Shown: piece by piece, positions 34,638-58,955 of the stretch
Layout of the letters: every line of letters begins with the position of its first letter
Numbering within the stretch: the first letter of the stretch is position 1
NCBI GenBank assembly: GCA_965644295.1
Contig: CBFFRP010000255.1
Coordinates: 124,001-188,000 of the forward strand
Length of the DNA: 64,000 nt
DNA from: Paraphysomonas bandaiensis
Lineage: Eukaryota > Protista > Chrysophyceae
Direction of reading: 5' to 3'
Notes under the pieces: model-generated
What the model saw: only the letters and a program-made list of their open reading frames with translations
What the model was told of the DNA's origin: nothing
The model's database searches: none
Program-made: the position numbers and the translations under genes

Positions 34638-34990
34638 TTTGAACAGTTCCTAAGGTAGGATATGTTCTTTTATCAGTGTAATTATATCAAGGTAACTTTA
34701 CTATTACTGGACTTGGTATATATAATATGGCTTTCCCCCTGCCATATTGGCTTTTGAACATTTTTGTATGTTTAGATCATTAAAAAAGTTATATCGCAAC
34801 GCTAGATAGATGATAGATTATTATATTGAATACATAGCTGTATAGCTGTGCGTTGTCATGTAAAATATATCAACAATCGAATTGTATATTTCTTTCATAT
34901 CATGTTGAGTTTTGCTAAATCTTTCTCTGCCCTACGGTGGCAAATACCGTTCAACACAAAGTTTCACCTTATTAACCAGCTTTAAGCTCA

Positions 34991-37531: not shown

Positions 37532-37579
37532 CTCCTACTGGACTGGGACACAACGAACATCAAACGTACACTCATAGAA

Positions 37580-40500
37580 GTGTCCGCAGCTGCTCACACG
37601 TGGTTATCCCCCAGTCCACACTTACATATCCATAGTTGGCCCTCACCTGACACAACGACCTTCGCCTGTAGCACCCACATGCGTCCACCACGTAAACCGC
37701 CAGACAAACAGTCGAGATCCACCAGTGTACATCCCACGAAAAGGCACCAAGGACCGCACTTTTCCTGTGATAATAGTGGTGATGGACCACGAAAACGGCC
37801 GGCCTCGACACAACGTAAGCGAAACAACCTCCGGCGGCTCAGTCGCAAACGAACTCTGCAACAATTTCGTGAAGGAACAATCCAGTCCCTCCCTCCACAC
37901 ATACAACGTCAACAGACACGAAACAAGCTCCGCATCCGTGCCCACAACAAGCAAGCATGGCGAGAGCATTTACAACACCTGGCACAACAGTGTGTAGACA
38001 CACACAACATCGTGACCACTCCTACACCTGACACAGCACCCACAGCTGTTACAGCACCCCCCCGTCCAGAAGACTCCACACATACTATTTGCCTCCCTCC
38101 GCCCACAGTGGAGGACGAACAAGAGAGAACAATCACTGACACAAGTGTACTGCCTCAACTATTTGTGCCGCACCCTCTGCCAGCTGCCTTCACGGACCCC
38201 GGACTGCAGAATTGGTCCTTCTACTCGCCCAGCGGTCTGTTAGCCATTGCCATACACGAAGAGGTGGTTCACAGTGTCATGTCCATGCTACAATCGAGGC
38301 ACGCTTTAGAACGCATAGAACAGCACCTCAGATGTTCGCTTGAGGAGGGGAAAATGCTGGTTGCACGTCACTACACACACACAGAATACAACAACACACC
38401 AATGGAGGGCTTCTGCGGACTAGCTGCTATTGCCGCAATATACCACAAACAACCGGAGGAGGACCACTACCCGTATTTAAATCCCGATGATCCAGCCTCG
38501 AAAGCAAAACTGCTCCAAGTCATTCAGACAAGCAGGACGGTACTTAGTACCTACACGCTCGCTGAAGCCAAGATGCTTAACTTTGCATGCATCCGGAAGA
38601 AGCTCCGACAGCAGCTAACAACGTACAACAAAGCACTACGCCGCAAACGACCAACTGCTGTCGGAATACCCCCAGAGCAATGGGGCTACACAGACATCAT
38701 AGCCCTCCTGGCAGAAACCCTGAGTATACGAATTCGTATCTGGCAAGATTCACCAGTGGACCTTGGCCACAACTGGGCGTACTGGTCTACCCACCATTCC
38801 TCCTTCCTTCCACAAACTCAATTCCTTCCATCTTATGATGTGTTTTGCTCCAACGACCACTTCTTCCTGGACACCAAATACCCGGTGGAGTTGGAACTAC
38901 ACGCGCTACTCGAGAGAATTCCTGACCTCGTCATCATGCGTCTCCAAAATGTGTTGCAATATCATTCCAAGGGAATGCAAGGAGTCCATCGTGCCAGGTC
39001 CATCAACCATCCCTCCCACGCCCTTCAGGGGAAGGAATTCTCTTCCGATAACAGCGGTGACGGACCCAGCAAATCCACCCACACATTACCCTTACCCACT
39101 AAGGATGCCACCACACCGTATGCAACTCTATTTGACTATTTCCCAGTCAAACGGAGGCCACCTACCACCAACCCTACTCAACTGAACACCATGGGAACTC
39201 CAGCATTAGCCCCAGACGGCCCATCCTCACACTCCACTACCACTCCTGACATCAGGCCGGATGCACTGCCCAAGGACATTGCCACACACCCCCGACACTA
39301 CACAGAGGGCTGGGGTCACACGCCCTTTCACTCCGATCTGCTGAACAACTGGGTTAGATATGATGAAACCCAAACCATTGCTGCCTCCCCACAGGGAAAC
39401 CTTTTAAAAGAAATATATGCACACATGCTATCCCCTGCCTGTACAGACATATGGGAAGGATTCATAGCCAAGGCTTCCAGGACGGACAACTATGATCTCA
39501 TGATATCATTCACGCTACCAGAGCACAAATTGGATACCACGCACAGCGCCCTACTAGTTGCCCAGCATCTCGCGAATGGCAACAAACCCTGGGCAGACTC
39601 CACTCATGTTGTATCTAGGCATGTGCGGACCCTTTGCCTGACAAAGGGTATTCCCTCAACAGCCACTGTTAGTCTCCGTAAGACACTCATGCAATATGAA
39701 TCCTCGACTCCACACACAGGACTACATCTAGACACGGAGGATTTCCAACTGCTACTCGATCTTCTCTCCATACCATACAGACTATGGGACGCTGTTCAAC
39801 CGCACCTGGCGCCTGGTTGGGCACAGCTGTCACCATTCTCCAGACAGGCACTAACAGTGCACGCTTCTACCAACACTGTGGTAACCCATGACATCATACG
39901 CAGCCAGCATGGGTTTCACATACTCAATGCAACAAATATCCCCACCTGCATCATGCACGCTCTAACACGGACTCAGGAGCGGCTATCCTGTTTTCTACAA
40001 CACCAGACCTCCAGACAGAGCACCAATATCCTCTGGACTTCTGAGCCGTCAACTGTACCACCTATGCTACATGAGCACAGAGAGCAACAGGAACAGAGGG
40101 AAGTAATTGCAGTCTCCTTGTCACCGAGAGCTCGACGTCAACTACGACAGATGAACCCCACGGACCGTCGACAACTCAGGCTCCATATGTGCGACATGAG
40201 CAGAGTCTACCGCCTCACCCTCAGACCCTCAGCCCTTCGCACACAACAACATATCCCTAGTGATGGGTACTGCGCATACAGCACACTCTATCATCTGCAC
40301 ATTCTTGCTTCAAGCAGGCGACACACTCGCTCCTGTCTGAAATTAGACCTCAAACAACGCAAGGACCGTCACACGCTAGCATCTTTCATAAATACATTAG
40401 GCACCCAAGCGTTCGACATAATGCAACGGGAGTGCATGGCCCATCACACACTTCAGCCACTACGACATAAGTTAGATCACGCACAGGCCGCACTTTTAAT

Positions 40501-43111
40501 ACCTACCAAAACAACATACACTACGGAAGACGACATAACTCACTGGCTCTCAGTGCGAGAGGTCCACCTTTTAGCCTCTACTATCAACCCCTGCACGACG
40601 TGGGCGCAAAATGGTAATTACCTCAGCATTGTAGGCATCCCTACTGACAAAGTAGCTTATAACATCGCATGGAAGGTGGACGAACTTAGGGACGCTATTC
40701 GTGATAACTACTACCATGTCATACTACAAGATGCTCACTACTTCCTCTTAGACCCTGCCGGTCTTTCTACTGCCCTAGACAACGCCCTACTATCTCTTGA
40801 AAACACCTTGGCCACCAGTATACTCTCAACGGCTGACCCCATCGCTCCACCTACACTCCCCGCGGACTCAATCACGAACAACAATAGGACATCAAAGATG
40901 ACCAGCACCAGAACAACCTCGTCAAGCAGCACCAAGTTAGCACGAACAAATCGACAGATTCTGCAGGCTTCAACCCCTGGAGCACTACCATCGCACAAGA
41001 AGATGCAGTTGAAACACGCCCAAACTGCGTTGACAAGTCGATGCCAGCCAACCCGGAAAGCCAAAAAGGTCGTAAATTACGATGAAAGTGACCAACCAAC
41101 GAACCTTCACAACTCACACCCAACCACGACCACACGAACGATCAGACCAACTCCAGCACTAGATACCACCGGCTGGGACAGGGACTGGTCAAGAAAGTTC
41201 TACATTGCGTACGCCGATAACACTGCCAAAGGACTATCCCTTTATGCGAAGAACACATTCCCAGCAGACGTCATCATTGCTGAGTACAAAGGCAAACGCT
41301 ATCCACTAACAAAGATGAGTCAGTCTACAAGGCGTTCTGATTACATAGTTCAAGACAGTACTGGTACCTTCGCAATAGATGGCTTTGACCAAGTCCGACA
41401 ATGTGTAACATGCGAAGCTGGGTATATTAATGACCCCCTAGCCACAAACATGGCTAATGTCAAGTTTGTCACGAAAAATAAACGCCTCTATGTCCGTACA
41501 ATACGTTCCATTGCTAAGGATGAAGAACTTCTCATCAACTACGGACATCATTATTGGTGTGATCAACGCTGGCCACTTGAGATATTAATCCAAGCCAGGG
41601 CTGCGTACGACAGCGACATAGGCGGTGCCAATATAGCAGTATGGGACAGACTCCTTGCAGACAAGAGTGGAACTCCTACAGAGACCTCCAGCAGCATCCC
41701 CAAGGATCCCTCGGGAGCAGCCATGGGACTCCGACTCTCCACATGGAACACAAATGGCAATCCGGCATCACACACAGGTAAAGCCCAAGCTATCATCCGA
41801 CACTTTAAGCGGCAAAAATTGGACGTGCTCCTATTACAGGATGTCCGTCTAACAGAAACTCAGGCCAACTTCTTCACGCGTATCATCGAAGATGCACTCC
41901 AGGGAACAAGAATATGCCTCTTCCTCAGCAAGCAGCCAAAACTGACTTCAAGAGACCCACTAATGGGGGGTACAGTAGTCATAATCAGCGAATACTGGAA
42001 GCGCCGTCTCGCCTTCACAAAGGCTGACTTTACGGGACTTGGTTTAGTGAGCCGACTAGAGTTCAAAACGTCGGTGGCGCACACCCTAGTACTAATAAGC
42101 GTCTATCTACCCCCGAAGCCATCCACGCCAGGCACTTGCACATTATGGAGCAAATTGACCAAGCTAGGGAGAGCGTCCCGTGGTATCTGTACTGCTGACC
42201 CCTACAAGCTCCTATGCAACATCCTTACGAAATGGGTCACTAAAGCCAGAGCCAAGGACCATACTGTCATTGTCGCCGGCGACTTCAATGGCTCCATGGA
42301 GACAAATCCTAAAGGCAGAGACATACGACCACTTGCCGACAAACTCCAACTGGCTGCACCACTCCATGAGCTTCTCCTACCCAGGAAAACATATCATACC
42401 TTCCACAGATTAGACAAAGGAATATCGCGGATCGATCATATTCTACACACGCCGTTACCTCCGAACATGTCTGTTACGGACACTGGCTGCCTTGACTCCC
42501 CCTCATTACTCGCAGCAGCCTTCGATCATCGACCGGTCTGGGTCGGTTTCACCGTACCAGTCAATCTTGACCCTCGACCACCTGAGTCGCACGTCGGATT
42601 CGCCCCCCGTCTCAATGTAAACCCGAAGGACTCCAAGGAAGTACAGGCATACACCGCAAGACTCCTCCAACTTCATGCACAACTACCACATTTAGACAAC
42701 GGATCGACTGCCATACTCCCTCCTGAGGTGGCAGCCAACAGACTAGCGGCCATCCATCACATAACCCTCCAGGCTTCGCTTGAGGCGAAGCGTCCTGCAT
42801 GTACACATAGCACACGCCTACACGAACGTTGTCAGCGCACACGCTCAAAGTTCAAGAATGGCTTTTCCCCGGAAATGAGAGTAATACAGGAAGGAATGCT
42901 CATGGTTTTGCGGATTATCCAAAAGATGTTCAATTCTGCTGGATACAAACGGCATGGATGGCGCGGCCCCCGGCAACCACCCCCACCCACGAAATCATCA
43001 CTGCATGGTTCGCCCGATGGGACTCCTATCTCAGGAGTTCTCAGGGTCACATCAAAGGCATATCGGACATCAACTTCTGGTGCAGCCACCGCAACGCGGA
43101 CCCACGAGTAA
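37580..43111 (+). CDS. LINE ORF2 N-terminal part: OTU-like modules, SET domain, AP endonuclease
   Basis: PMEGFCGLAAI..DHF and PSDGYCAYSTL..AHY (OTU-like); KGLSLYA..AEYKG..AGYINDP..DEELLINYG..YW (SET); STWNTNG, LQD, AGDFNG, SRIDH, FDHRPV (APE); first ATG at 37679. Confidence 0.85.
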   Translation: MSAAAHTWLSPSPHLHIHSWPSPDTTTFACSTHMRPPRKPPDKQSRSTSVHPTKRHQGPHFSCDNSGDGPRKRPASTQRKRNNLRRLSRKRTLQQFREGTIQSLPPHIQRQQTRNKLRIRAHNKQAWREHLQHLAQQCVDTHNIVTTPTPDTAPTAVTAPPRPEDSTHTICLPPPTVEDEQERTITDTSVLPQLFVPHPLPAAFTDPGLQNWSFYSPSGLLAIAIHEEVVHSVMSMLQSRHALERIEQHLRCSLEEGKMLVARHYTHTEYNNTPMEGFCGLAAIAAIYHKQPEEDHYPYLNPDDPASKAKLLQVIQTSRTVLSTYTLAEAKMLNFACIRKKLRQQLTTYNKALRRKRPTAVGIPPEQWGYTDIIALLAETLSIRIRIWQDSPVDLGHNWAYWSTHHSSFLPQTQFLPSYDVFCSNDHFFLDTKYPVELELHALLERIPDLVIMRLQNVLQYHSKGMQGVHRARSINHPSHALQGKEFSSDNSGDGPSKSTHTLPLPTKDATTPYATLFDYFPVKRRPPTTNPTQLNTMGTPALAPDGPSSHSTTTPDIRPDALPKDIATHPRHYTEGWGHTPFHSDLLNNWVRYDETQTIAASPQGNLLKEIYAHMLSPACTDIWEGFIAKASRTDNYDLMISFTLPEHKLDTTHSALLVAQHLANGNKPWADSTHVVSRHVRTLCLTKGIPSTATVSLRKTLMQYESSTPHTGLHLDTEDFQLLLDLLSIPYRLWDAVQPHLAPGWAQLSPFSRQALTVHASTNTVVTHDIIRSQHGFHILNATNIPTCIMHALTRTQERLSCFLQHQTSRQSTNILWTSEPSTVPPMLHEHREQQEQREVIAVSLSPRARRQLRQMNPTDRRQLRLHMCDMSRVYRLTLRPSALRTQQHIPSDGYCAYSTLYHLHILASSRRHTRSCLKLDLKQRKDRHTLASFINTLGTQAFDIMQRECMAHHTLQPLRHKLDHAQAALLIPTKTTYTTEDDITHWLSVREVHLLASTINPCTTWAQNGNYLSIVGIPTDKVAYNIAWKVDELRDAIRDNYYHVILQDAHYFLLDPAGLSTALDNALLSLENTLATSILSTADPIAPPTLPADSITNNNRTSKMTSTRTTSSSSTKLARTNRQILQASTPGALPSHKKMQLKHAQTALTSRCQPTRKAKKVVNYDESDQPTNLHNSHPTTTTRTIRPTPALDTTGWDRDWSRKFYIAYADNTAKGLSLYAKNTFPADVIIAEYKGKRYPLTKMSQSTRRSDYIVQDSTGTFAIDGFDQVRQCVTCEAGYINDPLATNMANVKFVTKNKRLYVRTIRSIAKDEELLINYGHHYWCDQRWPLEILIQARAAYDSDIGGANIAVWDRLLADKSGTPTETSSSIPKDPSGAAMGLRLSTWNTNGNPASHTGKAQAIIRHFKRQKLDVLLLQDVRLTETQANFFTRIIEDALQGTRICLFLSKQPKLTSRDPLMGGTVVIISEYWKRRLAFTKADFTGLGLVSRLEFKTSVAHTLVLISVYLPPKPSTPGTCTLWSKLTKLGRASRGICTADPYKLLCNILTKWVTKARAKDHTVIVAGDFNGSMETNPKGRDIRPLADKLQLAAPLHELLLPRKTYHTFHRLDKGISRIDHILHTPLPPNMSVTDTGCLDSPSLLAAAFDHRPVWVGFTVPVNLDPRPPESHVGFAPRLNVNPKDSKEVQAYTARLLQLHAQLPHLDNGSTAILPPEVAANRLAAIHHITLQASLEAKRPACTHSTRLHERCQRTRSKFKNGFSPEMRVIQEGMLMVLRIIQKMFNSAGYKRHGWRGPRQPPPPTKSSLHGSPDGTPISGVLRVTSKAYRTSTSGAATATRTHE

Positions 43112-46100
43112 TCCTGGGTTGGAACGAAAAGCAAGCCACCAAGAAAAACCTTCTCCGAATTGCCTTGCGACTGAGAGGACTTCTTCATGGAAGAGCCAGG
43201 ACAGAAATGCGGACTAGACTCACGGCTCGCACCAAGCAGATGGAGGCACTGCTACAGCAGAAAAGACTTCAAGCAATTCTTCAGAAAATTGGTCTCAAGG
43301 TCAAAACACCACTCCGACTTACCACGGTGAAAACAACGGACGGACACATCCTCACAACGCCGCAAGACATTCATGAAGGCATTAATGCGCACTTCCGTGA
43401 ACATCATGCCAAACCTCCTGGACTTGACCCTGTAGCACAACAGCTCCAGGATGACCCTACATGGTGGAAATCACTTCTTGATCCGGGCTCAGCGACATGC
43501 CAGGAACCACTCCACCCCCGCTCGAAAATTCCTCTTCCCCTGCAACTGGGGTTACGACGGGCCCTTTGTACCAAGACCACTCCGGCCATGGCAGCCACAC
43601 TCAAATCTACTCTTGCAAAAGACATCACCCAGGATGAATTCTACTGCACACTTCACTCTCTCTCCTTCAACCGCGCGCCTGGACCCTCAATGGTCTCCTC
43701 CAACATGGTCAAATCCTGGCCACCGGTAGTTCAGCGAGAGGCTTACATCCTCACCAGATCTCTCTGGAAACATAAACATGTGCCCATTTGGTGGAGAGAC
43801 AGGGTAATGTCTCCCATTCTCAAGAAACCAGGAGAATCCTCCCTCACTAATCTCCGACCGATTGGTCTGCTTGAAGTCAGTAGGAAAATATTAACAAGGA
43901 TAATCACTCATAGAATTCTTACCGTATGGGAGGAACAGAAAGTTTTGCATCCGTCCCAGCATGGTTATCGCTGGAGGAACGGGACGGACACAGCGATACT
44001 ACGGGTACTCGCGGCTGCAGAAGAAGCAAGACGAAAAGGCGACCAGCATATATGTACACTCTGGGACTTCAAGAAGGCCTTCGACTCAATTGCGCCTAAC
44101 CTCATGCGTCTCGCGTGGGCACGACTGGGCGTTCCGGACGATGTAGTTGACTGGTTTGGCAACTTAGATGCCGGCGGTCTAACATTTCCCTGGACACCAT
44201 TCATGGCAAACAACATAGAGCCACGTTCTCTCCTTGACCTCCTGTCCGCAGACGGCCACTTCATTGCACTATTCAGTCTGGGTTTCGAAGCCGAAAGGGG
44301 TATCACCCAAGGGGGCACAGAATCCACATGCGCCTGGGTGGCACTCTACGACATCCTTCTCACGTGGCTGGACATTGAACTGTCAACAACGAGTCCAACG
44401 TTACCAACTATTCAACTCACGACTCCGACTACCGGCGAAATAAAGATCTCCTTCGCGGATGATCTTAACACAATAGCTAAATCCATACACGCTGCCCAAC
44501 TCATTGCCCAACAAATATCTGCGTTCTGCGTACTTTCGGGAATGGAACTCTCTATCCCCAAAGTAGTTTGCACAGTGTTTCCGATCCTACAGGATTCCAA
44601 CAAGTCCTCCGACCCCATTGGCTACATCATTCTCTACGACTGGTCATGGCGCCCACACCCAGTCCCTATCCAAACATCACTAGAGTCGATACATTACCTC
44701 GGAGCAGACCTTCCTCTCACAATCACAGACAAGGCCTCCCATGACTGGTGTCTAAAATACCTGAAAGTCGTGACCACACACCTAGGGATCAAACAGGCCT
44801 CAGCCGGCTGTAAAGTCATGGTTATCGAGACCCAAATCATACCGACTTTGCTCTATAGAGCCACCAAAGCTTCATGGCCGCTACACTGGTACAGAGAAAT
44901 TGACGCTGCTTGCGCAACCCTCTACAGAAAGGCCCTCAGTCTAGGCCCTGGATACCCCACGGAACTGATCTACCTCTCACTCAAGCACAACGGATTAGGT
45001 ATGAAACGTTTCTCAGACTCAGCGCAGGAGCAAAAATGGGGATCTCTACAGCGCGCAATAACCCTCGGGGGAGAAGCAGGTCAAGCAGCACATTTTCTAC
45101 TCACTCAGACAACAGAGCCACAGCCCCAATACCACCACTATGTTCTCAGCCTCAGGGAATGGGGAACGGAATTGGGCCTTACCCTTCAGGAACCTGAGCC
45201 CCCCGAACCACAGGATGAACACATGCTGACCAACCTAAAACAAGAACTCGGCCTTAATAGTGTCCAACCAGATACTTTCAAGGCTATCTTCACAGATGGA
45301 TCATACACAGCCAGTGCGCTCTCCACTCGTCGCCTCACTCATGTCAATCCGCGAACCCGATGGACACACCGAGGAGGTGCAGCGGTCGTCTACTTACCCC
45401 CAGAAAATGCCTGGGAAGATGGTACAACCACAATACTACGACTAGATACACCCTTTCGTGACGTGCCCGGTTTGGACTCATACGCATATGAACTCATAGG
45501 CACAGCCATGGGGCTTATACTCTCAACACGTATTCCCGAACACATACGAAGCCACACAGACTGTCAGGCAGTGTGCACCCGCACTGAGGAAGCACTCTCC
45601 ACAAGACGCAGAGCTCTCGGTCACCGTGCAAAAGGGGTACTACTCGAAAGCATCGCAGCCAGCAGAGATTGCAAACGACAGGTGACCTGGGTGAGGTCTC
45701 ATCCCGAACGACGTACCACAGATGAAACGGAGTGGACGTTTGAGGACAAGGGCATCTATATTGCGGACGCAGTTGCGGGTGAAGACTGGCATGAAGTCGA
45801 TCGCATCCTTGGAAAAAATAACTACACTGTCTGCACAATTGCGATTGACAGTGCCATCGAACGCTTACTAACTGCTGGATTATGGCACTGGCGTATGCAC
45901 AGTACAAGACGGCCATACTACTCTAGCCCACTCCTTACTAATTTCCAGGATCTCTGCGACCTAAGGACACTTGAGAACTACACTTCAACCAGAGATCAAC
46001 GCTACGGACACAATCCTGATCGAGCGCCTGGCTACTGGACCAATAGCGGAGTACACCTCCCGCGCAAACTAGCTCAAGCGGATGGCAGTGCATCCAAAGA

Positions 46101-47013
46101 CAAACTCAGCTCAAATCTACGCCAAAGAATACTCAACACGGCACTGACATGGGACAAATCTTTCTGCATAGGGAGGAACCGGGCCAAAACCAAACAGGGA
46201 CTTGACCTGACCAAAGCCGCATGCTCTGACTGCGGGTTTCGACTAGATTCCCTAAAACATATGTGCCTCGACTGCACACATGAATCCATCACCCAAATAA
46301 GGGAAACTGCATTTCAATCGCATAAAAATGTGCTCCACGAAATACAGAGAACTCAGACCTTACCCAACTGGATCACATCTGCACTACGGAGACTCTCCAG
46401 CAGAGCCTGGAATCCCTCCATCCCACAGGTCGAGAGATACTGGACTGGAACCATCACAGCAGCCCAACTGGAAACGGTCTTCGAAGATGCCATACACAAC
46501 CACCTGACGGCACACAGTCTACGGAACCTAGAAACAGCGGTTATTAATCTCCTGCAACCGCTTTACACTGCAGCGAAGCTTATGCTACAGGATCGCGGTT
46601 GTCGCTATATCACCATGTCCAAAAGGCCGCCCAGACTACTCCCGAGACCCCGTCCGAAACGCAGTCAGTCAAGACAACGTCCGAGAGTCCTTCGACTACT
46701 AGGGGTCCAACGAAGACCCCCCACAGCGTCCCCGACTCCAGACACACGTGCACACCTCACAGGTCCTACCCGACAGAGCACTGGACTGCCCAGACCTCCA
46801 CAACGCCGACGGCTTCGACAACTCTATCTACACCCGCGGCCCCACAGGAGCACAGTAACACAGACTACAAACCCAACTCCTCCTCCCAACAATCCCCACC
46901 ACTCTCAACCCACACATCTGGAACTAGGTGCACTCAGGACCCTAATCCAGAACGCTGAGCCCCCTCCAACACCAATGGAGACCCATCCCAAAGGGAGACC
47001 CCCAGATCAATAG
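42829..47013 (+). CDS. LINE ORF2 C-terminal part: reverse transcriptase, RNase H, CCHC finger
   Basis: APGPS, LRPIGLL, QHGYR, DFKKAFDSI, GITQG, FADD, YLG; IFTDGS, YELIG, HTDC, WVRSH, ADAVA; CSDC...HMCLDC; joined to the upstream ORF by a -1 shift near 42967. Confidence 0.93.
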   Translation: MSAHTLKVQEWLFPGNESNTGRNAHGFADYPKDVQFCWIQTAWMARPPATTPTHEIITAWFARWDSYLRSSQGHIKGISDINFWCSHRNADPRVILGWNEKQATKKNLLRIALRLRGLLHGRARTEMRTRLTARTKQMEALLQQKRLQAILQKIGLKVKTPLRLTTVKTTDGHILTTPQDIHEGINAHFREHHAKPPGLDPVAQQLQDDPTWWKSLLDPGSATCQEPLHPRSKIPLPLQLGLRRALCTKTTPAMAATLKSTLAKDITQDEFYCTLHSLSFNRAPGPSMVSSNMVKSWPPVVQREAYILTRSLWKHKHVPIWWRDRVMSPILKKPGESSLTNLRPIGLLEVSRKILTRIITHRILTVWEEQKVLHPSQHGYRWRNGTDTAILRVLAAAEEARRKGDQHICTLWDFKKAFDSIAPNLMRLAWARLGVPDDVVDWFGNLDAGGLTFPWTPFMANNIEPRSLLDLLSADGHFIALFSLGFEAERGITQGGTESTCAWVALYDILLTWLDIELSTTSPTLPTIQLTTPTTGEIKISFADDLNTIAKSIHAAQLIAQQISAFCVLSGMELSIPKVVCTVFPILQDSNKSSDPIGYIILYDWSWRPHPVPIQTSLESIHYLGADLPLTITDKASHDWCLKYLKVVTTHLGIKQASAGCKVMVIETQIIPTLLYRATKASWPLHWYREIDAACATLYRKALSLGPGYPTELIYLSLKHNGLGMKRFSDSAQEQKWGSLQRAITLGGEAGQAAHFLLTQTTEPQPQYHHYVLSLREWGTELGLTLQEPEPPEPQDEHMLTNLKQELGLNSVQPDTFKAIFTDGSYTASALSTRRLTHVNPRTRWTHRGGAAVVYLPPENAWEDGTTTILRLDTPFRDVPGLDSYAYELIGTAMGLILSTRIPEHIRSHTDCQAVCTRTEEALSTRRRALGHRAKGVLLESIAASRDCKRQVTWVRSHPERRTTDETEWTFEDKGIYIADAVAGEDWHEVDRILGKNNYTVCTIAIDSAIERLLTAGLWHWRMHSTRRPYYSSPLLTNFQDLCDLRTLENYTSTRDQRYGHNPDRAPGYWTNSGVHLPRKLAQADGSASKDKLSSNLRQRILNTALTWDKSFCIGRNRAKTKQGLDLTKAACSDCGFRLDSLKHMCLDCTHESITQIRETAFQSHKNVLHEIQRTQTLPNWITSALRRLSSRAWNPSIPQVERYWTGTITAAQLETVFEDAIHNHLTAHSLRNLETAVINLLQPLYTAAKLMLQDRGCRYITMSKRPPRLLPRPRPKRSQSRQRPRVLRLLGVQRRPPTASPTPDTRAHLTGPTRQSTGLPRPPQRRRLRQLYLHPRPHRSTVTQTTNPTPPPNNPHHSQPTHLELGALRTLIQNAEPPPTPMETHPKGRPPDQ

Positions 47014-47801
47014 CGCCGGTGAGTCCACGGACACACGATAAAGGCGAATTTCATATCACACAAAAGAACGGAAGTGGTTGCACCTTGGTGCTTGCGGCGA
47101 CGCACAAGCAGCTTTCGTAGCGTTAAATAGTAGGATAAAAGAGTTTGTATTGATTAGTTACGGGTAGTGGTCTAACTAGTATGACTAGCATTCTTCTAGC
47201 CACTAATTGATGCAAGGTCTCAACGCCTATTGCTAAATAATCAGACATTCACTACTGAGTTTTGCTGTTTAAGCAATTAAAAGCTGTAATTCGAAGATAT
47301 TGGAATTATGACGGTTACTGGAGAATACAGTAGTGATGAGCTGTATTATGAGAAGTGATATCATGACGATGTAAGATCGTACTAGAAATGAGTGGTAGTA
47401 GAGATAACGTGATATATTGTTTATTTATTATAATCTTCTCTTATATTAACTTGATTAATGAGTGAATACACGTCCAGTTAACTTAGTAATCATCCAATCG
47501 TGTCATAACTTGACATATCAATCGCTGATCAACTCCCGTATCTTCAATCGTCATGACACTTCAGTTTCACAGTTATAGCTGTGTTGTACTTTACAGTTTT
47601 ACGCATTGTATTTGACGTACTTCACAGTTCTATCTTAGAGAAAGATACGTATTCCAACAGAACGCTCCTGTCGCCGACATTTCTAAAGGCAACATTTCGC
47701 AGAAATATGTATTATACCTTATTGTCATGTAATAAACATAGGCACATGGCACATGTATAACGGACAAACTAAACTACTGAAAAAACTAAATAATAACTGC
47801 C

Positions 47802-50800
47802 TCATTCAAAAGATGCTCTGATAAAAAGTCTGGAAAAAATATCTTCACCTGATCCACCCGGATTTCGTAAACGAACGCAACGAAACCCTTCTTGTAAGCA
47901 ATGCAACGGCACAGTCGAACACCCAGCCAAATAGCCACCCAAATACACTCGAAACGACACTAACGCAAACTCTAGAGCAGATACGGAAAACGAAAATACC
48001 TACATCAACCACTTCAAAGTTAATACATCCAATATACTGTCGACACACCTCATCCCATATAGGATTATCAATACGGCCAAAGCCACCTGAGCTCACAGTC
48101 TTCAGCATTTGAGTGTCCTGTGGTAGTCCTTGAATCAAAATTTCAACGTATGAGTTCTCCCCCTGCCAATGAAAACAATGAATTGCTACAAAATAGAAGA
48201 ATAGCAATTTAGTGATACTAACCTGCAGATTCGTGAGATCACTCGAACTATAAGGAATGTGAAGGTTAGTGGCGCTTATCACATGTAATGAGCAGGAAAG
48301 GCCTTCAGCCCGCCCATGAACACTGTCCCAGAGAATGCAGCGCGGCTTTAAAACATATCCGCAGTTTCCATTTTCCAGGAACTTCCCATCGACAACTTCT
48401 CTGGCATCTGGGGGAAAATCGCAGTCCACTGCTTGTGCTCCCGTACTCCACAGAAAAGCCGGCCCAATAGCATCATCCTTGGCATTACTAAATACGAACC
48501 TTACATGACAACACATTACTCCGGTTAAATGACAAAAACAACTGTGAGTACCTGAGGCATTGTGTGTGTGGTACTAAATGTATATCTTTTGAGAGAATAA
48601 GATCAATCATTGCGTTGTGTTCTAAACAAACCAGCTCTCTTTGTCCAGGGAATTTATTTCCAATACTTTCTCGTAACCCTACCGTTGCCTCCCGATAGTA
48701 GAAAACGGCACATTCTCGAAGAATTTCATCACCGTCCTTTGAAATGCACGTGCTACCAGATATCGATGCTGTAACAGGTCTATCCCGTAGCGCAATCATA
48801 ACGCGTTTCTTGAGAACGTTTGGAGAAGGTAAATTGCCACTACTGCATTCATGCGGCATTACCAGCACTTGACCAAGATTTTTCAAGGACGCCACCATGC
48901 GGACTTGATTGGCAGAGTTGCAATGATTATCAATATAGAGAATAAGAGGAAATGGCGAAGAATCAAAAGCAATTCTGATAATCATTTGAAGGCAGCGATC
49001 AAACCGCGTCACAATACCTGGAGCACCATCCGAATCATACTCTGCAACAACGGGGTGACCTCTGCAGTCCTCTCCGTGTTTCTCCTCCCCGTTCCAACAG
49101 TGAAGCTGAATAAACCTACACCCGTTCCTCAAGTCTTGAATATAGCGATATGTTGTCCCATCTTGCACAGGAGGGGCTGGTGGACCCACCGCTCGGATTG
49201 GCGTGTGGTATGTACTCGGCCCGCATTTGATGTAGTAATGTGTTATAGGGTGTCCCATTTCTTGGTACTGCGACTGCTTGAACGGCATAAAGCTATCGTT
49301 GTTATCATCTGTTATTAGATTCAAAAACGTCTGATACTGTATTCCAGTTATAGGTCGAGAAGAAGCGGGCTCATGTCGCAGGATTCGAACCATTTCGACC
49401 GCATCACTCTCGCTTAGTCTTCGTTTCTGAACCCGTGACCTGACTATTAGTTACAACACGTGTGTCACTTCGTCATAAAAAACTTACCAAAAATCAGCGA
49501 AAACATTCAACGACAGCTCCTCCGACAGGATATCTTCATCGACGAATGTATTCAGGATATTCATCGTGGTTATTTTACCCTCAATACGCCCTTTAGTTAC
49601 CAGCATTTGCCAAATGCACTCCACTTCCACACTATATTGAAAATCGTCAAGACGTCAATACGAGATTTTTATATTTTGAACCCACCGCTTCATGAGTTCT
49701 TTCAGTAAGTTTGCAACTTCAACAACATCAACCAGTACGTCGTCTCGCGCCGTTCGGTTCAGAGCTGTGAGAATTCGCGCCTCCGGTACATACACTTTCA
49801 TAGATCTGGTAAGAGCAGCCAGCTCGCTGAACCCTAATGTTTTTCTCCCATCTAAAAAAAGCTTCTCCCACTGATTACGGACCATTGAAAGCACAACGTC
49901 ACACTTGAACTCTTCAATGGCAGCAGATAACACAGAAAACCAAGTCTCGAACGCTCCATCTGTCGTTGCACAAAGATCTACACTTCGACTGCTATAAATG
50001 ACAGAGAAACTGCGACGAACAGCATCGGGTTTTCCGTTGAGTTTACGGCAGTTGCGAAATGCAGGAGTGGTATGTCCCCTTTGTACATAACTTGCACACG
50101 CCAAGTCAACTACACACGGTGTGTTAACACATTAATCCGCAAAAACTAATTCCACGCTTACCCACACAATCATTAGCGCTTTTGTGGGATGCTCTGTCCG
50201 GAAGCCAGTGCAAGAAGCGCCTGTCTTCACTTAGCCATATTGTTGTCGAGTACACATGACCGTTTCGTTTAACTTTTAAAAATTTCTCCTCTAATGAAAG
50301 AGATAATGATAAATGAATTCATTCATTGGAGCATTAGCGTCAATACCTCCAACAGTAAGTAGAGCCAGATACCTCTCTTGCGTATCTCGAAGCTGATCAA
50401 TGAGGTCTTTCTTGTCTTCTTCTAACTCTATGATTTTATTGAAATACGCCATCAACACAGGGCTCTCTATATGATCATCTCGAATGGGGCTGGACTATTA
50501 TGTCATTAGATTACTAAATAAGTAATTAAATATATCAAAACGTACCTCGTCTGTCAAAGGTATACTATGCGGCGCTTGTAATTCATGAGAGTTCGCTTGC
50601 TACATTGATACTAAGATCATGATAATGATGCACACTATCCGTACCTCTATTTTTCTATCCTGATGTCCTGGTGATTTACACGTTTCTGGTATCAAGCCAA
50701 CCGCCTGCTTCTGCCACAACATGAGCCACGAATTTATTCTTGCCTAATACTTACGTCATCGGAGCTCTCAGCTACAAATTCCAACTGCTTAACTATATCT

Positions 50801-53478
50801 CCATTCCCAAGTGCTACTTGTTCGTTTTCAAACGGGACAGACTCTTCACTGTTTCTATATTCAGTCGTTCCCGTATTCTGTTTCATAAAAGTGCGTTGAC
50901 GATGCCCTCGGAAAGCCGACTGAATTAATAACACTGCTCCAATACACCTCAGTCTGCGCATGACTGCGATATATTTTTTCCATATCCTCTGAATAAGACG
51001 TGCACTATGTTCGTATTCCACATGTTGTCTTCTCCATCGAAAAGAGTGGTATATTACTGAACGGAGTGCAATAAATTGACACTGGTCTGGCAACAGCGTC
51101 AGTCGACTACGAAGATGCCGTTGTAGAACCGTTGCCAATTGATCTACTGACTTTCTTCGTATTATCTCAAAGCCAATAGCTGTACTCCAAAGCATGCATA
51201 CCTAGATAAAATTAAACACTCATTACTTTTTATAGCACAATACCTCATTCGGAGTCATTTTGACAACATTTAATTGCGAAATGTATTCGGGCTTATCAGC
51301 TAAAAGCAATCCCGCGACAACGGGAATGCATTCAAACAACAACACCGTTACAAACTGCCTCCAAAAATTATCCTTTTCAGTAGCCCGCGCAATATTATAT
51401 AACTTCATCCAACTTTTGAAATGGAAATGCGGGAAGACAGCACACACTGCTTTGTACCGTTCAGCAAAATCCCCATAGGCCATACGCACCATATATGTGT
51501 TCCTATAAAGTGTTACAGTCTGAGGAATTCCCAAGCTTTCCATTTGTGTGCGGACTAGCGAATGATCAAACTCATGAGGCACCATGTCGTTATTTGGTCT
51601 GATGCATCGAATATAATGGCACTGCGTATTACCAAGGTTATACAAAACACGGTCTAGCTGGTTACTGTAATCGTATGCAAAACAAGTCTTTTGAAAAAAT
51701 TGACTTCTCGTCTGCCGTAGCCCTCTGTTATCAACGGAGTCTGTATCGGAGATATCGTGTTTGTGGATTGAACTTGAATTAGATGTGCGTAAGTGAATGC
51801 CCACATCAACCGCAGTCTGATCAACTTCCGTCCTTAAAAAATCAGCCGCAGAATACCAAACTTCCCCGCACGTGTGTCGAACTCCAAACATTAACTTGAG
51901 TTTCTTTTCCGTACTTCCGATGAACAGCCGCTTTTTCGTTTCATACTTGCAATAAATCGATTCAATGAGATCACAGTCGGTCATGTTAGGAGTGTTGAGA
52001 GCCCGATTACAGAGCGAGAAAATACCTCTACGGGGGTGCTCGTACAACTCGACCGTTTCAGCAATGATGTCTATCCCAAGCTCATCACATTTAGAGTTCG
52101 TAAAAGCGCCAAATTCGTGTAAAAACTGCCTTTGGAGCTTCTCGTGAGTATAATTAGCGCACATTTGCATGTATGAGTTTCGAGAACAGCTCTCAAAACC
52201 ATACATATCAAACAAAGATATACTCGGCAGTACATCGCCAACTGACGAAACGGGATAAACACTAGCTCTAGATGGCATGAGGTTAGTTTCTACACTTATG
52301 GTCAGTGAATCATTAATCCTCCCCAAAATGTGGTCACAGAGAGAAACGTAGAGACCCTGCGCCATGATATCCCGAGCAACGAAGCACTCTTCCAACGACG
52401 CCGTTGTTTCCACAGTGCGCCCACAATGTAAAGCGTTGGCTCGCCGAGTTATCTTCTCTAATAACCCATCACGGTCCATAATAAGAGTCGTGCACGCGGC
52501 AGATATGTGTCGGTCAGAGGCGGGAGAAAACTGGACCTCCCCAGTAGTTGTAAACTCGAATTGTATATTCCCAATATGTAGAATTGCAAGTAGATACTTG
52601 GAAAGGTCTGCTATATCCTCGACAGACATACCAAGAGTTTCTAAGTCCAGTACGAGAGAAGTAAAATTTTCCCTGTCCGTTTCTTGTTGGTCCACAGAGT
52701 TCTCATCTGATATATTGAGGTATAAAAATTCCAAGGGATCCTCTATATTCAGAGCCGCTCGCTCCTCTGAAGAAAGTCCGGCACAGACCTCGTGGAATAC
52801 ATGGAAATTCCGCTGACCCTTCAAAGGCGAAGACACCCTGGATTTCTCCAGCAACACGATGTTGATGTGAGCAGAAGTAATGTATCCCTGAGAACTGTAA
52901 GTTATCTCCGTATACTTCCCATGCCGAGAGGAATTCCCGTTATGATGAGTGTACGCATTACCGAAAGACTCAAGTACGCGGTAGGCAGATCGAATTCGTC
53001 CTGGCAATTCAAGTGCAGAGTGGTTACCATTCCGTTCTGCTACACACTCTGATGCCAAAGTCAAATACTTTAACACATCTTTCGCAGTGTTCGTTTTGCC
53101 ACTACCACTAATTCCGCTAACAATAATGGCCTGTTTTTCTCGTTTACCACTAAATGGGTCGCCGTTGAGTAAACATTGACACACATTTTCACTAAATACA
53201 AACACATGCGGTTCGGTTATACTCTCACCACTTGATATTCGCTCCGCCAGGTCCACCGAACACACGTCGAGGTGTTGAAACGGGTTCAATACAACTAGAA
53301 TCGATGCTGCATTTGTGTATATCTGATCAGACTCATATCGACGACGAAGTACATACTCTATTTCCAATTCATCGGCCTCAGAGAGCAGTGCTAAGTCCGA
53401 GTCATCTGACGATTTAATAAAGGCTGCAACTCCGTGCTTGCTCCTTCTCGGAGCTAACTGTACAGTGGTACTTGTCAT
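47802..53478 (-). CDS. myosin motor-IQ fused to a PH/EF-like/X/Y/C2 phospholipase C-like module (multi-exon)
   Basis: Myosin: IYT..ILVVLNPF, SGISGSGKT, LESFGNA..NGNSSRHGK, DMYGFE, YIRCIRPN; IQ: IQRIWK, IQSAFRG; PH: FLKVKRNG..WLSED..HW; X: HPITHYYI, GCRFIQLHCWNG, SPFPLIL, LPSP; Y: GKFLENGNCGYVLKP; C2: NPIWDE..EGFR; traced introns keep the frame. Confidence 0.8.
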
Positions 53479-53584
53479 CAGCAGAGACTATCTCGCACTC
53501 GCCTGGGAGAGAGAGGGTCGGTGAAGGAGTTGCATTCGAACAATTTCAGAGCTTTCTGTCACTCCCTCTTTCCACTAGAGTCTA

Positions 53585-53654
53585 GTCTATAGTCTACAGT
53601 CTATAGTCTACAGTCTATAGTCTATAGTCTATAGTCTATAGTCTATAGTCTATA
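53585..53654. repeat. 7-bp tandem repeat (AGTCTAT/AGTCTAC) x ~10
   Basis: Directly visible, about 100 bp upstream of the myosin-PLC start codon. Confidence 0.9.
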
Positions 53655-54775
53655 GGGTATAGTCATCAATCACACGGCCCGGCCCTATCTACGACATACC
53701 ATCACTGTCATTGGCTGATTGTCGCACTTTCACTTCTTCTGTCAATAAATTTTTTTTGTATCATATTATACAACTCCACATGAATATACCGCTCTGTATT
53801 TCATGAAATACCGTATAGAATAGATTTTTGTGCAGTGATATCTAGATTGAGAGTGCGGCAGTCAGCCTATATGCGTATATCTGCCCATGCATATCCATAT
53901 CTAGATATACGGCAACTGGGATCATTATGTGAGGAAGCTCAGCCGCCGTTATTCAGCTTTACATTATATTCTGTACATAATTATTCCAGTATTAGTTACG
54001 ATTATATAGGTGTAATTTCACATCATTAAGAATAAAGAATTAAGCACATATCTGATACATTAGTCGTATAATTCTCTCATTCTCAATATATCATTTTGTA
54101 CATGACATGTTATCTACAATTAACTTAATCAATATTTCTTTTGTTACAACTCTACTGGAGTACAATATGCATGTGTACGTTCTCACATGTCTTCTACAAA
54201 TTTATGGTTACGGCATACAACACACATTATATAGTGCAGAATTTGAAGAGAATCTAATAAATAATAGTGATATAAATCTGAAATATAATATCCGAAATAT
54301 ATTATTACTTTCTTACTTATCAGAGATCGGAGATGTACATCACTTTACCGGCCCTTAAATCTATAGATGAATGAGAGGTTACGGAGGCGTAATGTTCATA
54401 GAAGGGCATTCTGGAGGAGTAGTAGTCATGACATATCGTCAACAGTCAACAGTATGTAGTTGTATCGTTCTTATAAGTTGCCAAATGCCATGCTTATTGT
54501 TTTTTCTGGAAGTAATTCTAGAAAATTTGATAATGAGTAACTCAAATGAAATTCTAGTAATGCGACTTCAACTCATGAGTATATATGCATTATGCATTAT
54601 ATATATTTCTTTCTTAGAGGGAATAGTTCCGACCACTACATATTTACTATGACTCTTACAATTTTTCCGCTTCTCTTTTTATTCAGTACCAATGCGACAT
54701 CATATTTATTACATCCCATGATTTCAATATAAACGGACACTTCAATTTAAATTCCAACACTACTTTCAAAGGAAT

Positions 54776-56026
54776 TTATTTGGTAGCAGAATCCATTAAT
54801 GCAAGCAAGTCATCATCATCGTCTCCCTTGCATGCAGCTTTCATGTCGTCCTCATCTTTGAGCTTTAACTCCCTCATATAGCCATCCAAAGTCTTAGCAC
54901 CGGCAGCGCCGTCAATATCTATGGCTATAAAATTAGATGATGCCTTTGCGCTACTCCCTTTCTCCTCGAATGAATTATCAGGAAATAGGTTAATTTTGAA
55001 TGGTTTGGCAGCTACTTCTCCTTTAGACGACACCCCCATTCCGAGCAAGTCTGCTAGCAAGTTCAGCTCAGCCTTGGCAGAAGACTTCGCTTGGGGTGCA
55101 TCGAAGTTCCGTTTAGCACTTGCCGCGCCTGATATAGCCATCTGTGCACCCATATCACGCCCCGCTTCAACTATAGATTCAAAAGAGGGGGTACCACTCA
55201 TGGCCTCTTGTAGCTCCCTGTTGATATACATATTGAACCCCAGCTGAGACGACATATCGAACACTTCTTCGCTTTCAACACAGTTCTCGTAACCTTCGAT
55301 CTCGATCCCCCTTCGCTTCACCACGTTACCGCCTTCATAGTAACTAATCATTCCCGGCGTCTGAGTACCATAAGGAAGTGCCCCATCATTGTTGAGAATG
55401 ATGGTACCTTCCATTGTCTGCAAATTGCGCTGCAGAAAGAGCGAAACTTTAGTTTTCTTACCCTGCAAGAATCTCATCAACGACTGGTTCAGCTGTAACC
55501 ATTGACCGTTGGTAAGAGAAGTATACAAATTCAAGGTAGAAGTAATGGCAGACTGTACGGATTTGATAATGGTGTCTGACTTCACAAGGCTCTTAAGGGT
55601 CTCCAAATGATGTAAAGTAACCTGAAGCACCTGTTGTGGGGCGGTACAGGAAACGACTTGATACTTAAACCCCATGATCATCAAATCATAAAGCTATAAA
55701 TAAATCATAAAGCTGTTAACAGAAACATAACTATCAAAAGCAAAGTGGGATACCTTTTCCATGCTTTGTTTATTTAGTCGCATAATAGATGAGTGAGCAA
55801 GTTTCTCAAATATTTGCTTTGTTGACGACGCCGTATACATTTCTTGAGGTTTAAATAGTTCTGTGACAAAAAGGGGGCTATACATAGCCCTAATAACATC
55901 TTGCATTACTTTAGTGGCTTTTTCCTCTTGAACCTTTTGAGCCTGAAGGCGCTGTTGTAAAATGTATACCATTTCCCCACCCATGTTGATAACAATTATT
56001 GGCATGGCCCACAACGAACCGGACAT
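54776..56026 (-). CDS. OSCP1: organic solute carrier partner 1 (NOR1) homolog, 2 exons
   Basis: NMGGEMVYILQQRLQAQ..ELFKPQ..LAHSSIMRLN..SMEK|LYDLMIMGFKYQV; intron ~55694-55754. Confidence 0.9.
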
Positions 56027-56657
56027 AGTGCTATATTTACGAAGAAAGATAACTCTTTACTGAAACAACAAGGATGACTAATATTATTAAGATGCTAATG
56101 ATGCGAGCCGGGAAGATGCAGTGAGGGCAACACAGTTCCTGCGCTTGCTTGGTTCTGTCTACAACTCTGCAGCAATTCTATTGTGCAGCATGTTCATATA
56201 CACAGCGGTATATGTACGGTATGCCTGCCCACATACGGCGAATACTTTATACGTCGTTTCACAACACCACAGTATACCGGTATATCGCAGGAATACAGCA
56301 GATGCCCAAAGTGTTTTTTATGGCAAAAAAGAGTAGAGGTACATAGTGTCAACTACGTACTCCATGGTACAGCAGTTGGTTATGTATTCGTTGTACTGCA
56401 GTACGATTTGACTTCTATATTTGTGTACGGATACACAGGCAAAGGATGATTCTGCTTCAAATACCATGCAATAACCCAACAGATATTGATTGCATCTTAC
56501 CAATCACCTCTGGAATTTATGTATTCGAATAGCTGTAAGAAGCACTGCGGGACGTGCTGATTGTTCTCCCTGTTGCCTCAGTATGGAGGTGATGCTCAGG
56601 TTGGACTGATGAAATGAAACTTGCCGTCTATAGTGACCACAGAATTATCATATTAAT

Positions 56658-58955
56658 ATGAGTGTATTTCCCTCATTATTTGTGTTGAAATCTATTTCAT
56701 CGAGAGCTCAAATTTTAGTTAAAGAAGGAACCAGTCAAAGTCTGAGAGATGCAATTGAACTGCTCCTCAAGAACGACACCTCTGTCGATATGGACATTTC
56801 TAAGCGCCCCGATGCTATAGATTGCGGTGCTTTACTTCACAACAGCCTTATAAAGTTAGCTAGTTCGCCGTATGGTGCTCTTGGAGTTAGTGTTTCAGCT
56901 AATTCTGATGAAATACGGCGAGCTTACAAAAAGTAATACTCTAAAACAAAATTTTGATCATGAATTCATTATAGTACTGCAGAATGGCTCTTAAATACCA
57001 CCCCGACAAAAACCCTTCTACGACACCCTTGTTTCAGGTTATCCAATGTGCGTATGAAAAGCTCACCGTGGGTGGTTCTACCTATGCGCCACACACCTCA
57101 ACTTCGACTCCGTCCAGTCCGCCACCATCCCCAGCGAAACCCCGTAAACAGCAAACTAGAAACGAGAAATCACCTCTGCATGGTAGTAGAAAGCAGCCGA
57201 GTTGTAGCAATAAATCTCCGCCGAAGTCCGGGAAGGGTTCTGCGGAGTATGCAAGATATGCAGACACTGGTAGGAGAGATGGTGAGGGGAGTCAGAAGTT
57301 CAAAGCCAATGGATGGACAGGAGGATCTGGAAAGCAGAAAGAGACTGGAGGCGGCGGAAGAGCAGCAGCAGCTGGAGATAATACCCCTCATGCAAGCTGG
57401 ACGGATCATATGCCGTCATCGGCGAGGGGATATGCTCAGGGAGGAGTACCAAACGCAAGCAATTCGCAAAAAGGATCCACTTCTTTTATGCGCAGTCAAA
57501 TGGAAGCAAGAGAACGAGAAGCCAGACGACGGAAGGAAGTTGAAGCCGCAGCAGCCCGCACTGCTCAGCGTAGATATCACAAAGCTTCACCTCGCCCTAG
57601 GCCGAAGGAAAACCCTCCCCCCAAGGACTATAGCACTGATGACAACTCTACACCTCGTTTCACATCCAGTAAGGTCAAGAAGAGTTGTCCTAGGGATGCC
57701 TGGGAGGAGGAATCAACCACAACTGGTATTGCGGCTGGACTTATCCCTACCCCTCAAGGTGTGGTGGTATCTGCAGTCGATTTTTATACTGTGGAAGTTT
57801 CATGGAATTCGCTGAAGTCCGCTTCGTCGTCCATGCTCCGTTCACACATATCTGCATTAAAAGTTGAGCTTAGCTGGGGTCTTGCTGATGTGACAATGTC
57901 GTGGGAGTCGTCATCTAAGCTTATAGCCGGAGAAAAAGTCAGGAAAAAGAATCTTATTTCTGGAGCAACATACCATTTTAGGGCACGCTATGTGATTCCA
58001 CCTTCATCTTCTAGTTCAGGTGAGTGAATAACCATAATTCGACCATTCTGAACGGTATTTTTTTGTCAGTGTCTGTTGAGGGTCAGTGGTGCACACCCGT
58101 TACAGTAACGCTTCCACTATTAGAACAACCAGCTAACGAGCCAGCCTTTGAAAGTGAAGATCAATGCACCGACAACCCATCTGCAGCAGCTTGGTCGGAA
58201 GAAGTACCGTCGCACGACGACCAAACCGCTTCGTACACTGACAGTACAGCAGTACCCGTAAATGCGGATACATCAGGAACACCACAAGAGGGGTCTATGG
58301 TGTGGTGTTTACTGGAGGCACCTCTAACGGGTTCTGATGATCAAGGCTATATACTGGAGGTTCATAAAGAAAAGAGCATGACAAGTGCTATAGTAGGCTA
58401 TATATCATCGGCGAAGCAAGTGCTTGCTCTTGAAGGAAAAGGAAAGTGGCTTCGCGTTAAATGTCATTGGTTGGCCTCTGTTGGTCACAAAAATAAGAAC
58501 AGAAAGGCCTCGGCGTGGGCAAGCGGGGAAGAGTGGGGGTGGGCAAAACGAGAAGAATGGAGGAGTGACATCGGTGAGACTCACGTATTTCTCCGACCAA
58601 TAACAGCGCCCACTCCTGGTTCTGAGGCAGCAGATACAGCAGCTTCGAGTTCTAGCAACTCTGGTAGTGATGTGCCAGTGTGGTATGAACACTACGACGA
58701 AAGTGGATACCCATACTATTATAACGAATCAACTGGCGAGAGTCAATGGGAACCGCCGGAGTGGGTGGAGGAAGTAGATCAAGACTCTGGGGCCAGGTGA
58801 CCAGTTTGTACGTTTGATTCTTATAATATCTTATTCGCTATGTACTATGTAGGTACTATGTGCAGCTAAATCAAGAAGACGGAAGTGTATTTAATTCGAC
58901 ATGGACGAAACCCCAAATGTTTTCCAGGGTGGTTAGACACACTACTTGGAGTTAG
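56658..58955 (+). CDS. DnaJ (J-domain) protein with FN3-like and WW domains
   Basis: PYGALGV..EIRRAYKK|MALKYHPDKN; VEVSW..NLISGATYHFRAR; WYEHYDESGYPYYYNESTGESQWEPP; three short introns. Confidence 0.8.

Follow-up and report, generated by a model that had tools for sequence, protein, structure and literature searches.

Gene structure and transcripts

The stretch of DNA analysed here (the window) comprises 64,000 nucleotides (nt) of Paraphysomonas bandaiensis contig CBFFRP010000255.1 and carries, on its minus strand at 47802..53478, an intron-rich eukaryotic gene in which a myosin motor and a complete set of phospholipase C (PLC) delta-like domains share one reading frame. The gene has 12 exons, and its spliced open reading frame (ORF), from 53478 to 47802, comprises 5,124 nt of coding sequence that encode 1,707 amino acids (aa) plus a stop codon, with no internal stop and with an in-frame stop directly upstream of the ATG. 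The product is identical to P0001, an independent complete transcript ORF in the protein collection, and this name is used for the protein below.

Contigs of four public runs (X8, X9, X14 and X19) were aligned to window positions 47300-53600. X8 and X9 belong to different studies and carry different organism labels; their origin from RNA is a guess, but their contigs are spliced, and X14 is a recorded poly-A metatranscriptome. Eleven joints were found, all reading CT..AC on the plus strand (GT-AG on the gene strand), around introns of 42-60 nt with donors at 51243, 50754, 50644, 50545, 50346, 50161, 49685, 49487, 48551, 48222 and 48048. A single X8 contig of 4,373 nt (47698-52623), which starts inside the motor and passes the stop, contains all 11 joints, as does a single X9 contig of 5,335 nt that runs from 47763 to past 53600, and the computed spliced lengths (4,373 nt for X8 and 5,285 nt for X9) match the aligned parts of both contigs exactly. 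X14 shows eight of the 11 joints and X19 four, their uneven cover being evidence neither way. Coding indels are absent from all four runs, and computed retention of any single one of introns 1-9 truncates the frame. The gene stretch is present in 20 of the 24 runs listed, from 12 studies, and every run with a recorded habitat is marine. It is virtually certain that the myosin-PLC fusion is real and constitutes one spliced gene.

The first-pass annotation, made from the sequence alone, had already proposed one fused frame ending at the stop at 47802, which the X8 and X9 contigs bear out; the break between the IQ and PH regions that would have separated two genes was not seen, as contigs from two studies cross this part in frame. 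Of the eight donors that it named, seven are exact and the eighth is displaced by 1 nt (50754 instead of 50753); the Y/C2 part contains three further introns. One X14 contig of 163 nt and depth 2.8 (51185-51347) is unspliced across intron 1, possibly as pre-mRNA or DNA; retention of this intron gives a predicted motor-only product of 751 aa.

Motor head and degenerate PLC tail

The domains are arranged in the order motor, three IQ-like motifs, short coil, PH, EF hands, X, Y and C2. Exon 1 (51244..53478, aa 1-745) encodes the motor and converter (together aa 28-745), assigned by Pfam (Myosin_head at aa 28-680, E-value 3e-115, 386 bits), by AlphaFold/Foldseek and by motif counts. Exon 2 (50755..51201, aa 746-894) adds the start of a linker and, by Pfam and a motif scan, three IQ-like motifs that begin at aa 771, 815 and 838, of which Pfam accepts just the final one. 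The linker continues through exon 3 (50645..50710, aa 895-916; joints on both sides in X8 and X9 and on one side in X14) and exon 4 (50546..50599, aa 917-934; joints in X8, X9 and X14). Exon 5 (50347..50494, aa 935-984), placed by RNA joints, carries a short predicted coiled coil at about aa 953-975 according to a crude heptad score, which also occurs in the relatives P0071 and P0164 described below.

RNA joints and PLC profiles place the first half of a PLC-type PH domain in exon 6 (50162..50290, aa 984-1027), its second half and the first EF-hand pair in exon 7 (49686..50109, aa 1027-1168), and the first part of a second EF-hand-like pair in exon 8 (49488..49631, aa 1168-1216); profiles built from active PLCs score the PH domain (aa 985-1093) at 79 bits, the first EF pair (aa 1102-1170) weakly at 8 bits and the second (aa 1171-1268) at 51 bits. 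Exon 9 (48552..49439, aa 1216-1512) comprises the end of the EF region, a degenerate X box, the X-Y linker and the start of the Y box, as read from Pfam, an alignment with rat PLC-delta1 and a residue table. The Y box ends and C2 begins in exon 10 (48223..48499, aa 1512-1604; RNA joints, Pfam and profiles), C2 continues in exon 11 (48049..48162, aa 1605-1642; RNA joints and profiles), and exon 12 (47802..47999, aa 1643-1707 plus stop; RNA joints, profiles and alignment) holds the end of C2 without an acidic calcium loop. Pfam matches PI-PLC-X at aa 1272-1431 (49273-48794; E-value about 1e-20 to 1e-21), PI-PLC-Y at about aa 1480-1567 (1e-4, below the curated cut-off) and C2 at aa 1577-1705 (1e-4), and the tail has the PH-EF-X-Y-C2 order of active delta/zeta-type enzymes. 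Weak Pfam matches to Zeta_toxin, TrwB and MNSV_P7B, the first two spanning the P-loop only, were below cut-off and were rejected, and the ESM Atlas gave no usable match for P0001 or P0071.

The first-pass reading of a whole PLC-delta-like module is correct for the set of domains and overlooked their catalytic degeneracy. The catalytic residues of rat PLC-delta1 were taken from PMC11174929 and mapped via PDB chain 1qas and active-PLC alignments. Relative to rat PLC-delta1 and active PLCs, His311 is replaced by Pro1290, and none of the four active-site calcium ligands is kept (Asn312 to Ser1291, Glu341 to Gln1327, Asp343 to His1329, Glu390 to Asp1386). Lys438, which we take to be a member of the catalytic set, becomes Ala1432, and Lys440 becomes Arg1434; Arg549 and Tyr551 align to Phe1513 and Phe1515 in one alignment and to gaps in the profile alignment, and the barrel carries replacements at most positions that bind inositol phosphate. 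All six core residues are kept in 138 of 158 PLC rows, five in another 5 and fewer in 15; P0001 keeps none. In PLC-delta1, His311Ala abolishes activity (PMC9968946). It is very probable that P0001 has lost PLC activity; judged by these residues, the module is a pseudoenzyme and the protein not an active myosin-phospholipase.

The ligand-binding parts of the tail are changed as well. The acidic third loop of C2, presumably a calcium-binding element, is present in all seven stand-alone rows displayed and absent from P0001 and P0071. In the PH domain, the equivalents of Lys30 and Lys32 are kept as Lys989 and Lys991 and the domain is basic (isoelectric point 9.05), so that PH may still bind anionic membranes.

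The head is, as modelled, a myosin motor domain fold: the AlphaFold prediction from a 35-row alignment has a predicted local distance difference test score (pLDDT) of 79 and a predicted template-modelling score (pTM) of 0.82, and Foldseek matches it to myosin X (TM 0.76, E-value 2e-43). A single-sequence prediction (pLDDT 32) was discarded. The nucleotide-binding residues Lys128 and Thr129 (P-loop), Ser184 and Arg185 (switch-1), and Asp424, Gly427 and Glu429 (switch-2) are kept. Elsewhere, the P-loop Glu is Ile123, the switch-1 Phe is His186, and a Pro lies inside the SH1 helix. The relay segment has 40 aa vs 46-50 in most heads, about 7 short, which is not a sequence error because no run contains a coding indel. 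The relay Trp is absent too, but it is also absent from 14 of 34 other heads, and its loss alone therefore proves nothing.

Relatives and genomic surroundings

A whole-protein search returned 70 matches, only one of which, besides the query, combines a myosin head with PLC boxes (P0002, 27% identical); the complete transcript ORF P0071, with myosin head, PH, X and Y, sits in the P0002 cluster. When a profile built from the two tails was searched against 1.84 billion representatives, 3,726 matches were obtained. The best 150, which were examined, include one further fused protein, P0164 (a myosin head incomplete at its N-terminus, with IQ-like motifs, PH, X and Y), and five fragments that have only the PLC part and show the same degeneracy of the site: P0107 (and P0253 from its cluster), P0114, P0116, P0132 and P0213. 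Over PLC columns, P0071 and P0164 are 23-28% identical to P0001. The counts given for the family are minimum values: the word-based protein search loses matches, a P0071-tail query having missed P0001, and neither P0001 nor P0071 was listed by the profile search. In a metagenome scan that kept 80 of 115 confirmed loci, none of the 80 has a myosin head and none scores higher for the family than for active PLCs; a viral scan found nothing, and the 64-kb window holds no second myosin or PLC piece.

In a PLC tree of 157 rows (P0128, too short, was left out), the nine degenerate rows form one clade with a FastTree support of 0.994. The clade holds in a 41-row tree without 42 active-site columns, where the Shimodaira-Hasegawa-like approximate likelihood-ratio test (SH-aLRT) gives 71 for the eight distinct members and 91 minus P0164. 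Five other degenerate PLCs (P0122, P0130, P0131, P0225 and P0068) fall outside it. The first EF pair is kept in P0001 and P0164 and absent from P0071 and four of the fragments. P0002 diverges from P0071 at the site of window intron 11, and the similarity of P0128, P0107, P0116 and P0132 ends near the site of intron 9; these gene-call ends suggest that intron positions are shared across the family. The clade lies near ochrophyte PLCs, with Mallomonas annulata P0122 and Triparma (the P0110 cluster) as the only named relatives nearby, from which we infer a chrysophyte-like ochrophyte host. Its sister group is unstable, being P0111/P0108 in some trees and a group with P0122 in the SH-aLRT tree. 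P0122, the stand-alone Mallomonas PLC, is itself degenerate at four of the six core residues. P0104 (Rigifila) and P0106 (Clydaea) each appear to have two tandem PLC modules.

Among 37 heads, that of P0001 is loosely associated with PX/PH myosins of stramenopiles (a broad group of 10 tips, support 0.96), and the tree allows no described class to be assigned. P0001, P0071 and P0164 likely define an undescribed myosin group.

Downstream of the gene, a repeat-like stretch at 47300-47660, where contigs of each of the four runs are very deep and often end loosely, is probably the end of a dispersed element. A very long unit resembling a retroelement without long terminal repeats occupies 34976-47013 on the plus strand, with ORFs of 851, 1,859 and 1,400 aa, and ends about 790 nt from the myosin-PLC stop. 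Its second ORF has a SET domain (E-value 1e-8) just ahead of an endonuclease domain (1e-9), an unusual feature within an ORF of the long interspersed element (LINE) kind, and its third encodes a reverse transcriptase. A fragmented Copia-like remnant with integrase core, retroviral SH3-like and RVT_2 matches lies at 23195-26071 (plus strand). On the other side, the 5' end of the X9 contig falls at a short tandem repeat with a 7-nt unit (about 53580-53660), roughly 100-180 nt ahead of the myosin start codon. The neighbours at 54776-56056 (minus strand) and 56975-58800 (plus strand) comprise an OSCP1 gene upstream and, farther out, DnaJ- and then WW-domain ORFs.

Possible function and comparison with known systems

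With fair though far from firm confidence, we read the protein as an unconventional myosin with a dead PLC tail, a calmodulin-regulated actin anchor or slow carrier whose tail acts as a binding domain. By comparison with known families, the IQ motifs would bind calmodulin-like light chains, and the head, given its intact P-loop Lys/Thr, switch-1 Ser/Arg and switch-2 Asp/Gly/Glu, is predicted to bind actin and turn over ATP; the short relay and the other changes would make P0001 a poor stepper. The tail would not hydrolyse phosphatidylinositol 4,5-bisphosphate (PIP2) and, by analogy with vertebrate PRIP, may attach to anionic membranes, partner proteins or both in a calcium-free manner. The family may have arisen once, when a stramenopile myosin fused to a copy of the lineage's stand-alone PLC.

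Several observations weigh against this picture. Near-invariant motor positions are changed in 22 of 88 cases in P0001 (8 of 89 in P0071), a share exceeded by only one of 32 other heads, and confidence in the modelled converter is low (pLDDT 38-57). In the PH domain, Thr999 takes the place of Arg40; outside the family, 82 of 97 rows have Arg or Lys in this column, and P0164 has Ala. The equivalence rests on the PRIP-like row P0077 (Arg there) and on residue numbering, and a PDB search with exon 6 did not confirm the PH register. This Arg is needed for PIP2 binding in PLC-delta and PRIP (PMC6726632), and the canonical PIP2 pocket appears eroded; any target named for the tail is a guess. At His356, three alignments give Arg, Glu or Asp and no His, within a variable loop of uncertain register where His1344 lies nearby. 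Between X9 and the window there are 12 coding differences, of which 8 are nonsynonymous and 4 synonymous (ratio of nonsynonymous to synonymous polymorphism, pN/pS, 0.58; p 0.32 vs neutral), too few for a decision. In the motor tree, P0001 and P0071 pair weakly (0.63), inside a broad group with stramenopile myosins, and the partial P0164 head falls elsewhere, among other long branches, so that a single origin of the fusion is not shown by the heads.

A bolder proposal, which we regard as unlikely, is that the family is an old, undescribed chrysophyte-like stramenopile myosin class in which a PLC tail with a re-wired site would serve as a motor-borne metal or lipid sensor and direct phosphoinositide signalling to actin while prey is captured or vacuoles are moved, with P0001 as its most eroded member. 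The re-wiring itself, in which exchange of His311 for Asp and of Asp343 for His, together with Glu341 and Glu390, would create another metal site or accept another substrate while P0001 has decayed, seems improbable to us. Its attraction lies in the consistency of the replacements, which suggests selection over drift: His311 is Asp in seven of nine family rows (ambiguous in P0164), Asp343 is His in eight of nine, and Glu341 and Glu390 are kept in eight of nine, P0001 being the exception, despite an identity of only 23-48% between subgroups; P0116 also keeps His356. Against it, P0001 has Pro, Gln and Asp at three of these positions, the His356 position varies freely among members, and the phosphate-binding lysines are gone from every member that covers them.

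The first-pass idea of a carrier or tether for phosphoinositide membranes is feasible in view of the retained PH lysines and basic charge; it is weakened because the PH Arg and the acidic residues of the C2 calcium loop are lost, and most of the barrel ligands are replaced as well. In its strong form, a truly processive carrier of PIP2-rich membranes such as the food vacuoles of a phagotroph, it is doubtful at best. The intact nucleotide core, the three IQ-like motifs with their short coil and the near-canonical motor of P0071 with five IQ-like motifs speak for such a carrier, as does the PH domain; the shortened relay speaks against it, the relay-converter contact being critical for the power stroke (PMC13068310).

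That P0001 is a fast-decaying paralogue, transcribed under relaxed selection but of minor use to the cell, its role being filled by relatives such as P0071, is very unlikely. Head and tail do sit on long branches, even family-shared substitutions have been lost, and nonsynonymous differences outnumber synonymous ones; against this stand all domains in order, correct splicing in four runs and the absence of coding indels. Moreover, 1,707 codons without stop or frameshift, with the domain order intact at less than 30% identity to the nearest fused relative, argue for long-term constraint on the gene. Two adjacent genes joined by read-through or contig assembly deserve almost no credence: short-read contigs are not proof of a single molecule and the low-depth X14 contig keeps intron 1, but no intergenic gap exists, every non-coding stretch is a short intron spliced in frame in two studies, and the same fusion recurs in two distant proteins, P0071/P0002 and P0164.

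The closest parallel to a binding-only tail is PRIP (PLCL1-2) of vertebrates, which has PLC-delta-like PH-EF-X-Y-C2 domains without PLC activity and acts by binding, attaching to PIP2 via PH and also X-Y (PMC6726632). Unlike P0001, PRIP stands alone, and its lamprey representative P0077 retains His311 and the PH Arg (Arg134 in PRIP, equal to PLC-delta Arg40, vs Thr999). P0077 occupies a separate branch of the PLC tree, and catalysis was therefore lost independently, here in a module fused to a motor. The nearest relatives of the tail are stand-alone ochrophyte PLCs of the delta/zeta type (P0103, Mallomonas P0122 and the Triparma cluster of P0110), which share its domain order, whereas P0001 lacks the catalytic histidines and calcium ligands and carries the module behind a myosin head.

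Among myosins, PMC3942036 and PMC2375034 describe tails with a kinase (class III), RhoGAP (IX), chitin synthase (XVII) or, in choanoflagellates, a tyrosine phosphatase, and PX, PH and ankyrin-PH-Aida_C2 tails in the stramenopile classes XXI, XXX and XXXI. P0001 resembles these in joining motor and IQ motifs to a lineage-specific signalling or membrane tail. It differs in that the class texts, figures aside, give no class, XXI, XXX and XXXI included, a PLC X/Y tail; its C2 is of the PLC type rather than the Aida type of the stramenopile class, and its tail is a whole inactivated multi-domain enzyme. The terms 'PLC' and 'phospholipase' do not occur in the main text of the surveys PMC3942036, PMC5583752 and PMC2375034, a scope that excludes figures and Additional file 1 of PMC5583752 (orphan architectures). 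The species table of PMC5583752 (929 species) has 48 stramenopile rows and no chrysophyte term, and the text of a 2026 chrysophyte genomics preprint, supplements excluded, does not contain 'myosin'. No myosin-PLC fusion was found in the literature searched, in which subscription journals and specialist myosin databases were out of scope, in agreement with the first-pass statement that no such class is described. What is new in this otherwise familiar kind of protein is the architecture of its tail, which a small family shares.

Divergent or non-motile myosins are known from class XVIII and from fungal class XVII. Some members of the present family share their eroded motor motifs, such as P0164, in which 18 of 40 near-invariant positions are changed; the head of P0001, in which the P-loop Lys/Thr and the pair of Arg (switch-1) and Glu (switch-2) remain, is less degenerate. 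Motor phylogeny and tail design are the criteria by which myosin classes are distinguished. A transcript-backed family whose tail is an entire PLC would be a candidate for a further class, in a protist group that is ecologically important but unsampled; it is also a case in which a PLC pseudoenzyme arose independently, in parallel with vertebrate PRIP. The series from the near-canonical motor of P0071 to the eroded heads of P0001 and P0164 would offer a testable path from motor-enzyme fusion to scaffold.

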